From sequence record PV419677.1: a stretch of DNA of 64,000 nucleotides; one strand, given 5' to 3'. Positions within the stretch are counted from its first letter, which is position 1. The number at the start of each line of letters is the position of its first letter. Below the pieces are notes generated by a model. It did not search any database, had not been told where the DNA came from, and saw only the letters and a list, made by a program, of their open reading frames with translations. The DNA is from a phage. Positions 5,027 through 28,746 of the stretch are shown piece after piece. Both the position numbers and the translations under genes were made by a program.

Positions 5027-6012
5027 TTCAGCAGCTCCAGAGCCTGTTCCAGTTTATCCAGACGATTAGTTGATTCTTCCCAAAATCGCTTGGCTTTGGT
5101 ATAGTCTTCAGTTGCCTTTTTATTAACAGCAAGAGCTTTATTATACGCTGTTTCCAGGGCAACAATTTCAGGCGCTTTTTGTTCCACTGACTCATTATTC
5201 AGATTATCAATCAGGTCTTCAAGGGTGGTTTCTTGCGGAGCGTTCATAATTTCCTCACTTTTCTTTTTATGGATTTCTGCAATAGTTGGTTGCTTTGCAC
5301 ATTTAACTTCACGCAATGTCACCACAATTTTCCAACCTTTCCAACCATGAGTACTGGTGATAGGGTCTACTTTAATTTTTTCAACAGTGCGCATATAATT
5401 AAGGGCACACTGCAGCTGATGAACAAGAACACATGCAACATCAAGATACTTTTTGACATTTTCTGGGGTAGCCACCGGCGTAAAGAATTCATACTTAACT
5501 GCAATAATTACCTGGTTTTCACCAGACTCTTTAACATTTATCATGTGCTCAGCCAAATGGGAGATAGTGCGAAAATCACCGCCCATCAATTTTGTCGCTG
5601 ATTTTATGATAGACATTTTGTTATCTCTGAATTCACGAGCCCAACAATTTGCGAATTCAGAAACAGTATAGCCTTGCTTATCAAGGTAGTATTTTTCAAC
5701 ATCACCAAACCAATGATATCCAATTGTACCTTTACCGCGTCTGGATTCAACGCCAAACTTATTAAGAAGGTCTTTATTAACCAGGTATGCCAGGACTCGG
5801 GAACCTTTAAAAGTTTTCTTGATATCATCATTACCGGCACGACTCGCAATAGTTGCAATGTCTTTCTTGAAGCGACCAGATGCAACAATCGTCGAGTCAA
5901 TCTGATTTAACCAGTAATTGATAATTAAAAGGATAGCCGATTCGCCTATCAATGGTTTTACTTTTGTGTCGATAGTTGCGTTAAAGGCCTGGATATATTC
6001 ATTACGTGTCAT
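5023..6012 (-). CDS. hypothetical protein with C-terminal coiled coil
   Basis: ORF track, 329 aa. Confidence 0.6.
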   Translation of the reverse strand: MTRNEYIQAFNATIDTKVKPLIGESAILLIINYWLNQIDSTIVASGRFKKDIATIASRAGNDDIKKTFKGSRVLAYLVNKDLLNKFGVESRRGKGTIGYHWFGDVEKYYLDKQGYTVSEFANCWAREFRDNKMSIIKSATKLMGGDFRTISHLAEHMINVKESGENQVIIAVKYEFFTPVATPENVKKYLDVACVLVHQLQCALNYMRTVEKIKVDPITSTHGWKGWKIVVTLREVKCAKQPTIAEIHKKKSEEIMNAPQETTLEDLIDNLNNESVEQKAPEIVALETAYNKALAVNKKATEDYTKAKRFWEESTNRLDKLEQALELLK

Positions 6013-6070
6013 AGTGTTCTCCTCATAAAGTAGGAATTCATTATACTCCCTCCATCCTTGGAAGTAAACA

Positions 6071-6976
6071 TTATTTTAATGCTAAAATCGCCGCCTGCAA
6101 TTTATTGCGTTGCGTTTCCATATTCTTGATGCGATTCAGAACATCCTGAATACCCTTTTTCTCATCTTCAATCAGACCGTTTAAGCGGTTGACTGATTCC
6201 TGGATAGCATCAGCATGATAACTCTCAATAGGCTTCATTGGTGGGTTAAAGATTTCAAGAGAGCTATCCGGTTGGACTTTCCATTTGTACATGTTTTTAA
6301 CGTCCACTGGCGAAATTTTAGCCTGGTCGTAAGATTTAAACTGACCTGTAACTGCTGGGTTATATGTCGCAGTAGGGATATGTTCTGCCATTTCTGGTTC
6401 CTTTTTCTCTTGATAAGGTGCATAAGACAAAAGATATTCTTTAGTTAATTTAATATCAATGACTATAGTTTTAAGGAATTTTTCCGTTTGGTGGATATAA
6501 TTTGTATCTTCTTCAAACGTGTATGCTTCAACAGCATGGCGCATATAAAACAGCGCGATACCCATAACCTCTTTAAAGGTATCACAAAGAACAACGTCGC
6601 CCTTGGTGGTTGGTTTGAACTTAATCTGTATACCATCATTCTTGATATTGATAATCAAGTTACTGGAGTTAAAATTATAGTTCTTGATGTTAACCGGAGC
6701 TTTACGAATACGAAGTCCAGCTGCCAGGATTTCCTTGATGCTCTTACGAACTGTGGCACCAAACAAAAACGCCGGGCGGCGGCAGTAATCATTCAGAGAG
6801 TTAATTCTTACAATACGTTGTCCATACCCCTGGGTGGCAGAACCTGATTTGATTTTGCCAAAGTTGACCAGAGAATTCATCGCGATAAGACGGGTTGCAC
6901 GTCCTTCACGCTGTTCAAATCGAGAATATTCTTTACGTGTTTTAATGTTCATATCAAAGTCCAAATAATTTTTCAT
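6071..6976 (-). CDS. hypothetical protein
   Basis: ORF track, 301 aa. Confidence 0.6.
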   Translation of the reverse strand: MKNYLDFDMNIKTRKEYSRFEQREGRATRLIAMNSLVNFGKIKSGSATQGYGQRIVRINSLNDYCRRPAFLFGATVRKSIKEILAAGLRIRKAPVNIKNYNFNSSNLIINIKNDGIQIKFKPTTKGDVVLCDTFKEVMGIALFYMRHAVEAYTFEEDTNYIHQTEKFLKTIVIDIKLTKEYLLSYAPYQEKKEPEMAEHIPTATYNPAVTGQFKSYDQAKISPVDVKNMYKWKVQPDSSLEIFNPPMKPIESYHADAIQESVNRLNGLIEDEKKGIQDVLNRIKNMETQRNKLQAAILALK

Positions 6977-7154
6977 AGAGTTTAGCTAAAGGCCAAGTCA
7001 CAATAGAAACTATTCCAAATAAAGCAAGCACCGGCCAAATAAAGGTAGCGAATACTGCTTCGCCACCTGAGCTAATTTCCATATGATTTCGACCAATCAG
7101 AACAGTAATAAATCCTATCACGAGATAAGCAAGAATAAAACCAATAATTTCCAT
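6954..7154 (-). CDS. small two-helix membrane protein
   Basis: 66 aa, two hydrophobic segments. Confidence 0.5.
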   Translation of the reverse strand: MEIIGFILAYLVIGFITVLIGRNHMEISSGGEAVFATFIWPVLALFGIVSIVTWPLAKLYEKLFGL

Positions 7155-8967: not shown

Positions 8968-9174
8968 TCACTTGCGACGACGTTTTGGTAATGGTTTAGG
9001 GAAGAACATTGCTTTACCGGCAGGGGTCAAAGTCACACGCAAAGCATTACCAATACCAAGGGATGCTTTAACCAGACCTTTGGCTTTTAACTCACCAAAT
9101 GCTTGACGTTGTTCAGGGTCACGAGTGTTAACCATCAGACCTTTTTCACCAGCAGCTTTGATTAATTCTAACAT
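8968..9174 (-). CDS. small basic protein
   Basis: 68 aa, KR-rich C-terminal tail; preceded by repeat promoter/leader. Confidence 0.5.
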   Translation of the reverse strand: MLELIKAAGEKGLMVNTRDPEQRQAFGELKAKGLVKASLGIGNALRVTLTPAGKAMFFPKPLPKRRRK

Positions 9175-9245: not shown

Positions 9246-9254
9246 TACTTTTTA

Positions 9255-9280
9255 AAATAAAAAAGGACCCCGAAGGGTCC
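9255..9280 (-). terminator. intrinsic terminator
   Basis: GGACCC-TTCG-GGGTCC hairpin followed by a U-run on the minus strand, just 3' of the ORF ending at 9288. Confidence 0.6.
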
Positions 9281-9287
9281 TTAGAAT

Positions 9288-10298
9288 TTAACGATAATAG
9301 GAATTGTGGTTGTCAAGATATACCTCCTCAACAAACTTGTCCCAGAACTTCATGTCCACCTTCGCAGGCATACCATTCTTAGCAGCCTGGATGGCCAGAA
9401 CTTCAACTAAATCGACAGTATCTTCAAGAAGTTCTTGAACTTCTTTAAATGGTAATTCACCAGCTTTAATCAGCTTAATGATAGAGGCTTCACGCAATGG
9501 GAATACCAAGTCACCTGTTTGGTAGATTTCCATCAATTGATACCCTGCACGATATGCATGGCTCAGTGCTTTCCAGTCAATACCTTCATTAGCTTCAGCC
9601 TTACGAGCACGTTCACCATATTCGGCGTCGAGTTTATCCAGAGATTGCTTGAGCTCGATTAATGATAGAGTAGTTTGGTATTTACGACCGAGGACAGTAT
9701 AGAACGTTTGAGGACCTGTTTTCTCATGGTTATGAAATACCCATTCGCAGAACTCGTTTTCAGGGAGTCGATGTTTGATATCTTCTACCTTAGTGCGACG
9801 TTGCTTAGTCGAACCGTCTTCTTGATAATCAACCCACTGTTCAGGAATCTGATTAACGATTGCCAGTACACCACGCAGTGCAGCCAATCGAGAACCTTTA
9901 ACACCATATTTGGAAGCTTGCTTACGGACATACCCCAAATAGGCTTTCATGTTAGTTGTATAGAACCGCGAACGGTTGTCTTGAATAAACTTCCATACAT
10001 CTGGTAAATCGGATTTGACTACCAGGTCAGCCGGTGTGTGAATCATATCCAGAGCAACGGTTTCGCCTTCAGCAGCCAGTTTAAAGAAATATTTCAGACT
10101 ATAAAGTTCATGGTCAACATCATCTTTTGTATTTTTGGTAGCCGTGTTATTCGTGTTCAGGTTGGTATGGTTCATCGCGGTTCCGAGCAGGATATCTCGC
10201 GGATGAGGAACAAAGATTTCTTTAAAATCGACATCAGATTCCGGAGTACTTGTTCCATAAAGGTGGGAGCCAAAATATCCCTTCATAACAGTTCTCAT
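9288..10298 (-). CDS. nucleotidyltransferase-fold protein
   Basis: N-terminal GSHLYGTSTPESDVDFKEIFV (GS..DxD signature); ATG at 10298 overlaps the upstream stop; ~336 aa. Confidence 0.6.
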   Translation of the reverse strand: MRTVMKGYFGSHLYGTSTPESDVDFKEIFVPHPRDILLGTAMNHTNLNTNNTATKNTKDDVDHELYSLKYFFKLAAEGETVALDMIHTPADLVVKSDLPDVWKFIQDNRSRFYTTNMKAYLGYVRKQASKYGVKGSRLAALRGVLAIVNQIPEQWVDYQEDGSTKQRRTKVEDIKHRLPENEFCEWVFHNHEKTGPQTFYTVLGRKYQTTLSLIELKQSLDKLDAEYGERARKAEANEGIDWKALSHAYRAGYQLMEIYQTGDLVFPLREASIIKLIKAGELPFKEVQELLEDTVDLVEVLAIQAAKNGMPAKVDMKFWDKFVEEVYLDNHNSYYR

Positions 10299-10747
10299 TT
10301 TTTGTCCTCGAAGTGGATTACAGGGCACATCTTAGATTTACGAGCTTTAATGTATTGAATAACGATGTTTTCTTTAGTTTCCTTTCCTTCACGTTTGGCT
10401 AGAATACGTTGCCATTCCTTTTCTTCTTTACGTAAATCATACCAGGACCATAAATTCATTAGACCATACATTAAACCAAATGCTACCGCCAGAATAAGAG
10501 CCAGTGTAGCTAGTCCTAAAATAAACCCTAAACCTAAACCAACCGGGGTACTTAATACAAAGAAATGCTCTAATACACCAGCCCCCGCGACAGTGAATCC
10601 AAAAACCACACTACCGATAAAAATGGCACAAACAAAACAGGCCCAAACCATTTTCCAAAAGTAAGCACACAATGAGTGTGGACGAGAATGGCGGTCATAA
10701 AATTTATCGTGGAAACGAGCATGCCAAGAGTTTGCATTGATAATCAT
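10295..10747 (-). CDS. membrane protein
   Basis: 150 aa, three hydrophobic segments, charged C-terminus. Confidence 0.6.
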   Translation of the reverse strand: MIINANSWHARFHDKFYDRHSRPHSLCAYFWKMVWACFVCAIFIGSVVFGFTVAGAGVLEHFFVLSTPVGLGLGFILGLATLALILAVAFGLMYGLMNLWSWYDLRKEEKEWQRILAKREGKETKENIVIQYIKARKSKMCPVIHFEDKK

Positions 10748-10757
10748 AATATTTTCC

Positions 10758-11318
10758 TTAAGAGTTCATAGTTGGGATAACAGAGTTCAGATAAGAGACT
10801 AAAACTTTTAGCTCGTCTTTAGTAAATACGACTTCACTTTCACCGTCATGTCTTTGGACAATGGACAACAAGTCACGACCGTTATGTTGAACAACAGTCA
10901 GTTCAGTATTATAATTCAATTCCTCTTCATCGCCTTCAAACGTTTCACTAGAACGAATCAGTGCATCTTGACCTGGGACTTTCCATTCAACTTCTGGTTT
11001 ACATTCTTCCTGGAAGAGTTTGAAAATACAATCAAAGAATTTATCAGAATCGCTAATGCTCAGGCATTCTATACCATTTTCCAGATTAAACCCATTTTCA
11101 TTTTTATAGATATAAGCGTATAGCTCATCGTTAATATCGACAGGAGCACTATGACGACCGTTAAGATATTCATCTTTATCCAAAACCATTAAATCATAAA
11201 GTGGTTTAATATCAGCGATAGTCAGTACGATTTTATCGTCTTCTTGACAAAGCTCAATTGCGTTATTAACTACTTCAGCGGTCAGTTCGCCAAACAATTC
11301 AGTTGTTTCAATAATCAT
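10758..11318 (-). CDS. hypothetical acidic protein
   Basis: ORF track, 186 aa. Confidence 0.6.
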   Translation of the reverse strand: MIIETTELFGELTAEVVNNAIELCQEDDKIVLTIADIKPLYDLMVLDKDEYLNGRHSAPVDINDELYAYIYKNENGFNLENGIECLSISDSDKFFDCIFKLFQEECKPEVEWKVPGQDALIRSSETFEGDEEELNYNTELTVVQHNGRDLLSIVQRHDGESEVVFTKDELKVLVSYLNSVIPTMNS

Positions 11319-28589: not shown

Positions 28590-28664
28590 TGGTATCCCGC
28601 CCTGGGATCGAACCAGGACCGCAAACTTAGAAGGATCGTATGCTATCCATTACACCAGCGGGAC
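28590..28664 (-). tRNA. tRNA-Arg (anticodon UCU)
   Basis: 75 nt hand-folded cloverleaf: acceptor GTCCCGC/GCGGGAT, T-arm CCTGG-TTCGATC-CCAGG, anticodon loop CTTCTAA, encoded CCA. Confidence 0.7.
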
Positions 28665-28669
28665 ATAGT

Positions 28670-28746
28670 TGGTGACCCAGACCAGATTTGAACTGGTAAC
28701 CTTTCCCTTATGAGGGGACTGCTGCTAACCATTGAGCTACAGGGCC
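28670..28746 (-). tRNA. tRNA with CAU anticodon (Met or Ile2-type)
   Basis: 77 nt: T-arm ACCAG-TTCAAAT-CTGGT, anticodon loop CTCATAA, encoded CCA; D-arm pairing imperfect in my hand fold. Confidence 0.6.

Follow-up and report, generated by a model that had tools for sequence, protein, structure and literature searches.

Polynucleotide kinase/phosphatase (Pnk, encoded by pseT) and RNA ligase 1 (Rnl1, encoded by rnlA) of phage T4 are the founding case in which a phage counters host defence by RNA repair. Nucleases of the RloC type have been proposed to beat this repair by excising the wobble nucleotide. This report concerns the T4-type gene nrdC.11 and the membrane-protein gene that adjoins it in a phage DNA stretch of 64,000 nucleotides (sequence record PV419677.1; this whole stretch is called the window below). 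The described enzymes with which the nrdC.11 product is compared are the bacterial RlaPs (RNA-ligase-associated Pol-beta nucleotidyltransferases). Two Pseudomonas RlaPs, PfRlaP and PaRlaP, were found to add one or two nucleoside monophosphates (NMPs) or deoxynucleoside monophosphates (dNMPs) to the 3′-OH of RNA, and DNA and proteins, which were tested as well, were not used as substrates (10.64898/2025.12.29.696909, a preprint of December 2025). According to the same study, RlaP prefers Mn2+ and, of the two halves of a cleaved tRNA, the 5′ half. In total RNA of E. coli it labels tRNA, both full-length and fragmented, as well as rRNA and shows little specificity for the nucleoside triphosphate (NTP), and it partly rescues aminoacylation when a tRNA has lost one nucleotide of the anticodon loop; its fold was described as a nucleotidyltransferase (NTase) domain joined to a helical domain (10.64898/2025.12.29.696909). 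Iyer et al. (2021) predicted that phage RlaPs replace nucleotides lost to nucleases like RloC before ligation (PMC7824862). With a probability of roughly 0.6, we propose that NrdC.11 is a long-form RlaP that restores tRNA nucleotides and that the membrane-protein gene is a separate neighbour.

An earlier note on the window, which gave no strand, had described an NTase-fold protein joined through an ATGA overlap to a 150-residue membrane protein and followed by an intrinsic terminator. The two open reading frames (ORFs), the junction, and the terminator were all present, and the genes lie on the minus strand. The features of the NTase gene are as follows, with the evidence in brackets (AF2, AlphaFold2).

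9288..10298, minus strand: nrdC.11 orthologue, encoding a 336-aa long-form NTase of the RlaP family, PF10127 (orthology, Pfam, phrog, AF2)
10227..10271, minus strand: codons of G10-S11...D22-x-D24, the metal- and NTP-binding motif of the NTase (homologue alignment)
10047..10049, minus strand: codon of D84, the third catalytic carboxylate (alignments A2 and A3, hhalign)
9663..9896, minus strand: helix and beta-rich insert, residues ~135–212, in the long (NrdC.11) form only (AF2)
9549..9572, minus strand: codons of K243-x3-H247-x2-R250, a motif of the C-terminal helical domain (alignments A2 and A3)

The region was 91–95% identical at the DNA level to T4 relatives of the Gaprivervirus/Dhakavirus type (TH55, UPEC07, VR20, and SP18), and its synteny was T4-like (nrdC ... 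nrdC.9, nrdC.11, mobD.1 ... rI, tk). The window is a Gaprivervirus-like relative of T4. The NTase ORF, read from 10298 to 9288 with the N-terminus MRTVMKGYFGSHLYGTSTPESDVDFKEIFV, encoded a protein of the same length as T4 NrdC.11 with 81.8% amino acid identity across all 336 residues, and the protein was 99% identical to those of phages TH55 and UPEC07. It matched the Pfam family RlaP (PF10127) with 48.2 bits (gathering cut-off, 23; E = 1.5e-12) and phrog_388 with E = 4e-131, and PF10127 also scored above the gathering cut-off in 84/84 diverse homologues that were aligned. On these grounds the 336-aa protein is assigned with high confidence as the orthologue of T4 NrdC.11 and a member of the RlaP family. 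A tblastn search with the NTase gave matches in 1522 phage records, and the family comprised 827 proteins at E ≤ 1e-30 among representatives clustered at 50% identity. In T4, the gene lies between nrdC.10 and mobD, is annotated as 'nucleotidyltransferase', and shares the catalytic residues. The earlier note would have given up its reading if the T4 orthologue had a known non-enzymatic role; T4 NrdC.11 is uncharacterised, and the preprint assigned it to the PF10127 family (cluster 5 of the similarity network) with the label of unknown function (10.64898/2025.12.29.696909).

The ATG at 10298 is the true start of the NTase, because it is preceded by GAGGA at 10309–10305 and because the resulting N-terminus agrees with that of T4 and of the 84 homologues. 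A longer ORF starting with GTG was not supported as the gene. In GenBank and UniRef, NrdC.11 orthologues are named 'thioredoxin' in many entries and 'HNH homing endonuclease' in one; these labels are annotation errors, probably carried over from the neighbours nrdC and mobD.

The N-terminal motif of the NTase was F9-G10-S11-x10-D22-V-D24-F. The GS-x9-DxD signature put forward in the earlier note is therefore there, except that its spacer has ten residues, which is still within the Pol-beta signature hG[GS]-x9-13-Dh[DE]h. An alignment of 84 homologues with 34–82% identity was used to examine residue conservation, and G10, S11, G15, S21, D22, D24, Y131, K243, H247, R250, P267, and G280 were invariant. 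D84 was nearly invariant in alignment A2 and invariant in alignment A3, and it was paired by hhalign with a conserved E of the canonical short RlaP; K243, H247, and R250 were invariant in both alignments. Both the minimal alpha/beta fold of NTases and a third catalytic carboxylate, borne by a later strand, were present. Judged from motif conservation and the PF10127 match, the protein is a Pol-beta NTase, as the earlier note had supposed from the fold signature, and has an intact two-metal active site consisting of G10-S11, D22, D24, and D84.

The AF2 model of the NTase, built from a 63-sequence alignment, had a pLDDT of 87.6 and was divided into an NTase core (residues ~1–130), a helix and beta-rich insert (~135–212) with strands at 154–158, 164–168, 184–191, 195–202, and 205–208, and a helical C-terminal domain (213–335). 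The earlier statement that about 300 residues were of unknown function was an overstatement, considering this division and the biochemical characterisation of the RlaP family. The C-terminal helices are HEPN-like or KNTase-like in the predicted model; the HEPN motif Rx4-6H was not found in the NTase, where the C-terminal invariant residues form K243-x3-H247-x2-R250 instead. Searches of the PDB with the single protein sequence and with the 84-sequence profile found no relative in a copy of the database that did not include the PfRlaP structure. Foldseek against the PDB gave weak matches only (E ≥ 4e-3, TM ≤ 0.40), and Foldseek against BFVD gave full-length alignments with short viral NTases at target-normalised TM values of 0.5–0.6. 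Among the latter was an NTase of Klebsiella phage Eowyn, whose genome was also matched by short RlaP in a tblastn search.

These results bear on the possibility that the enzyme nucleotidylates a target other than RNA, namely a host HEPN-type RNase toxin, in the manner of AMPylation by MntA, or a small molecule, as KNTase, ANT, and LinB do. This possibility drew on motif matches to MntA in NCBIfam (15.8 bits) and to PDC-S09 in PADLOC, both below threshold. The MntA cut-off is 60 bits, however, the match was limited to the GS...D motif, and nothing in NCBIfam scored above threshold. KNTase/ANT(4′) and the structural-genomics protein 3c18 showed 9–12% identity to the NTase with whole-chain TM-scores ≤0.40, and KNTase/ANT(4′) differ further in that the genomic context of the NTase is unrelated to antibiotic resistance. 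The lack of an Rx4-6H motif, the assignment of the sequence family to RlaP, the inactivity of RlaP on proteins and DNA (10.64898/2025.12.29.696909), and the RNA-repair context of the cellular homologues described below also argue against a non-RNA target, which we regard as improbable.

The NTase resembles the bacterial RlaPs PfRlaP and PaRlaP in the PF10127 match, in the GS...DxD...[D/E] site, in the two-domain plan with a helical domain after the NTase domain, and, as far as its cellular long-form homologues are concerned, in the association with RNA ligase genes. On the other hand, the bacterial enzymes belong to similarity-network cluster 1a and NrdC.11 to cluster 5, and the bacterial gene is found in an rtcB-rlaP-rtcA operon, whereas phage nrdC.11 is not adjacent to ligase or kinase genes. 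The canonical short RlaP has 254–277 aa and no equivalent of residues ~135–212; the long form is ~80–90 residues longer because of this beta-rich insert. A comparison of the two forms by hhalign gave a probability of 93.7% over ~90 columns, restricted to the NTase core. Canonical short RlaP was found in jumbo phages and in none of the T4-like phages.

To characterise the context of cellular homologues, one genome per species was scanned with a profile of the NrdC.11 family, and 80 loci with full-length homologues of 30–52% identity were collected. A gene for a Pnkp-like protein, Hen1, RtcB, or RtcA was located within 6 kb of the long form in 16 of the 80 loci. Canonical short RlaP was encoded at 17/80 loci, immediately downstream of the long form in 15 of them and often overlapping it, and these short neighbours scored up to 272 bits against PF10127. 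Four arrangements were confirmed by Pfam: Pnkp, then the long form, then short RlaP (locus L046); Hen1, Pnkp, the long form, and short RlaP (L080); RtcB, RtcA, the long form, short RlaP, and Hen1 (L031); and the long form directly preceded by a kinase-phosphatase-Rnl1-type ligase (L049). These arrangements therefore link RNA ligases with the long-form clade in its own right. A short RlaP gene directly after the long form is very frequent in bacterial genomes, and several of these tandems lie within Pnkp/Hen1 or RtcB/RtcA operons. Tandem long and short RlaP genes were seen at L015, L016, L031, L041, L046, L051, L069, L070, L074, L080, and L083, with the NTase at ~6001–6980 of each locus. The close relative VR20 encodes pseT and rnlA, that is, Pnk and RNA ligase 1.

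On the basis of the family assignment and this context, we infer with moderate confidence that the role of NrdC.11 in vivo is nucleotide restoration in tRNA repair with Pnk and Rnl1. In the proposed scheme, PseT would first yield 3′-OH and 5′-phosphate ends; NrdC.11, acting after PseT and before RNA ligase 1, would add one or two NMPs to the 3′-OH of the broken RNA without a template, like the bacterial RlaPs. The nucleotides replaced would be those lost from the anticodon loop to nucleases, RloC among them, whose cut is followed by trimming, and this step would extend the classical tRNA-repair counter-defence of T4. A viable genome-reduced T4 has lost the segment nrdC.11–mobD.3 (PMC9825161), and the dispensability of this segment fits a conditional counter-defence role.

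Several points weigh against nucleotide restoration as the role of NrdC.11. The PF10127 match to the NTase covers only model positions 25–142 of 249, the long form and short RlaP share ~19% identity in the NTase core only, and an hhalign comparison of the C-terminal halves alone was not significant (E = 0.23). This non-significant alignment superposed KALSHAYR on KxYCYALR, and thereby K-x3-H-x2-R on K-x3-Y-x2-R. The occurrence of the long form beside short RlaP in bacteria suggests that the two forms are functionally non-equivalent, and pseT and rnlA are distant from nrdC.11 in the phage genome. As for the family, the nucleotide-adding activity is known for PfRlaP and PaRlaP only, the repair role of RlaP was called 'potential' and was drawn from in-vitro aminoacylation, and the choice of nucleotide was unspecific (10.64898/2025.12.29.696909).

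Some of the same observations could be explained if the enzyme were an NTase for RNA 3′ ends with another purpose, such as repair or tailing of the tRNA 3′-CCA, tagging of host RNA for decay, or blocking of 3′ ends. Such a purpose would be in keeping with the labelling of rRNA, full-length tRNA, and fragments by RlaP with little NTP specificity (10.64898/2025.12.29.696909). The additional beta-rich insert could confer a different RNA specificity, and the presence of both forms in bacteria implies non-redundant activities. However, the linkage with Pnkp, Hen1, and RtcB indicates healing-and-sealing pathways, and RlaP favours the 5′ over the 3′ half when a tRNA has been cleaved (10.64898/2025.12.29.696909). 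Moreover, the Pfam families of CCA-adding enzymes and poly(A) polymerases were not among the matches of the NTase; the PolyA_pol head domain gave no hit at E ≤ 1. We consider this explanation unlikely, though slightly less so than a non-RNA target.

The tandem arrangement in bacteria suggests a two-enzyme pathway, a heteromer, or a division of RNA substrates between the long and short forms. T4-like phages have kept the long form only. A more tentative reading, which we consider less likely than not, is that the long form is a functionally distinct enzyme and no mere variant of short RlaP, and that in these phages it supplies the third enzyme that Pnk/Rnl1 tRNA repair otherwise lacks, by which the phage would defeat RloC-type anticodon nucleases that excise the wobble nucleotide.

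The remaining features concern the junction, the membrane-protein gene, and the end of the transcription unit.

10295..10747, minus strand: 150-aa membrane protein, phrog_944, in a variable slot upstream of nrdC.11 (phrog, AF2, conservation)
10295..10298, minus strand: ATGA start/stop overlap of the membrane-protein gene and nrdC.11 (read in the sequence)
10305..10309, minus strand: GAGGA, Shine-Dalgarno sequence of nrdC.11 within the 3′ end of the membrane-protein gene (read in the sequence)
9253..9282, minus strand: intrinsic terminator with an 8-bp GC-rich stem, UUCG loop, and T-run (terminator scan, RNA folding)

The membrane protein matched phrog_944 (E = 7e-57) and no Pfam family above threshold. 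Its hydrophobic region comprised residues 27–102, and the AF2 model (pLDDT, 70) contained two long helices at 26–62 and 67–119. Because of these two helices and because both termini are basic, the best, though uncertain, reading of the model is a hairpin of two transmembrane helices with both ends in the cytoplasm, rather than the three-helix protein of the earlier note. The termini were conserved across Gaprivervirus/Dhakavirus, Mosigvirus (RB69), and some Tequatrovirus (teqsoen), with NSWH...RPxxLCxYFW at the N-terminal end and KARKxKxCP at the C-terminal end, and they may make up a binding or metal site in the cytoplasm. The transmembrane helices were fast-evolving, and W8-H9, C27, and KARKxK-x-C141-P were among the residues kept.

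We considered whether the NTase and the membrane protein constitute a two-gene module in which the NTase would produce a nucleotide or oligonucleotide signal, or alter a target, and so control a membrane effector, for superinfection exclusion, toxicity, or signalling; the earlier note had found the pair reminiscent of signalling or toxin modules. A known system of this kind is Hailong, which consists of the NTase HalB and the membrane effector HalA. For such a module speak the adjacency of the genes and their ATGA junction, the conserved and probably cytoplasmic termini of the membrane protein with conserved Cys and His, and the retention of the pair in three Tevenvirinae genera. The viral neighbourhoods, sampled as 80 IMG/VR loci of which 78 had an upstream ORF on the same strand, point the other way. 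The membrane-protein family was directly upstream of the NTase in only 12/80 loci, the remaining occupants of this slot belonging to at least eight unrelated families and singletons, and it was found in 312 phage records versus 1522 for the NTase. In T4, the slot upstream of nrdC.11 is occupied by the homing endonuclease gene mobD. In addition, homologues of the membrane protein occur in Aeromonas phage avDM6 and Yersinia phage MHG19, where the neighbouring genes that were examined included none of the NrdC.11 type.

The membrane-protein TGA (10297–10295) overlaps the NTase ATG (10298–10296). The NTase start overlapped the upstream stop in 54/78 viral loci (36 with an overlap of 4 nt, 13 with one of 1 nt, and 5 with another length), independently of the family of the upstream gene (at least eight unrelated). 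Within the window, 93 same-strand junctions included 17 overlaps of 4 nt and 12 of 1 nt, together 29, so the junction between the membrane-protein gene and the NTase is an ordinary one. The two genes are the last two in a run of at least eight tightly packed minus-strand genes, at least six further minus-strand ORFs lying upstream of the pair with gaps of ≤16 nt or overlaps. A terminator does follow, as the earlier note said, with its stem at 9282–9263 directly past the NTase stop (−16.1 kcal/mol and z = −3.1 by RNA folding), but the pair before it does not stand alone as a bicistron. Rather than a two-component system, the ATGA overlap reflects how compactly early operons of the T4 type are packed.

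PADLOC-DB v2.0.0, a release in which the presence of Hailong models was unconfirmed, gave no match for the membrane protein and sub-significant motif matches for the NTase (best E, 0.004), so that neither protein had a significant match. The match to HalB was confined to the generic NTase core with 14% identity. Unlike in Hailong, the two genes here are not consistently together and are in a phage, not a host, and in cells the partners of NTase homologues are enzymes of RNA repair and not membrane proteins. A functional module of the two proteins is accordingly the least probable of the explanations considered, with very little chance of being correct, and later work should not treat the apparent pair as a system. 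Our preferred reading of the membrane-protein gene, from its distribution and sequence, is that it is probably a separate, lineage-restricted early gene in a hypervariable slot and an unrelated neighbour of nrdC.11.

Other genes near nrdC.11 and its homologues were noted. The window differs from T4, which has mobD upstream and nrdC.10 downstream of nrdC.11, in having the membrane-protein gene upstream and a 68-aa ORF downstream. The latter (8968–9174, minus strand) occupies the position of nrdC.10 and has no family match, and the same arrangement is found in VR20. The nrdC.10 gene is downstream of nrdC.11 in T4 and RB69 (L002:4126–5094 and L003:4381–5319) and encodes ~320 aa. T4 NrdC.10, considered as a second NTase comparable to the short RlaP of the bacterial tandem, was rejected: its weak matches are to AAA/STAND-like P-loop proteins, and the window lacks it. 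Upstream of the membrane-protein gene, the window carries an orthologue of MobD.1 (186 aa; 10758–11318, minus strand), which matched Pfam T4_y05I_N (E = 1.6e-36) and T4_y05I_C (E = 1.6e-19), 'putative transcription factor'. The idea that phages without the membrane-protein gene share MobD.1 as their upstream gene was also rejected, since MobD.1 showed no homology to any upstream ORF. In MHG19, a 355-aa protein is encoded two genes downstream of the membrane-protein homologue (L168:3226–4293) and starts with GRFQPFHNGH, a HIGH-type motif; by its sequence it looks like an NadR/NMN-adenylyltransferase-type protein and not NrdC.11. Two adjacent tRNA genes, for tRNA-Arg(UCU) and tRNA-Met/Ile(CAU), are located at 28590–28746 on the minus strand of the window; T4 has eight tRNA genes.

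The idea of nucleotide restoration by phage RlaPs is already known from Burroughs and Aravind 2016 (cited in PMC7824862), Iyer et al. 2021, and Carruthers et al. 2025, and the window therefore adds no new kind of system. If it is true that NrdC.11 restores the excised nucleotide, the loop of the arms race between RloC and T4 repair would be closed. More than 1500 sequenced T4-like phages carry nrdC.11, and the hypothesis is open to existing genetics.

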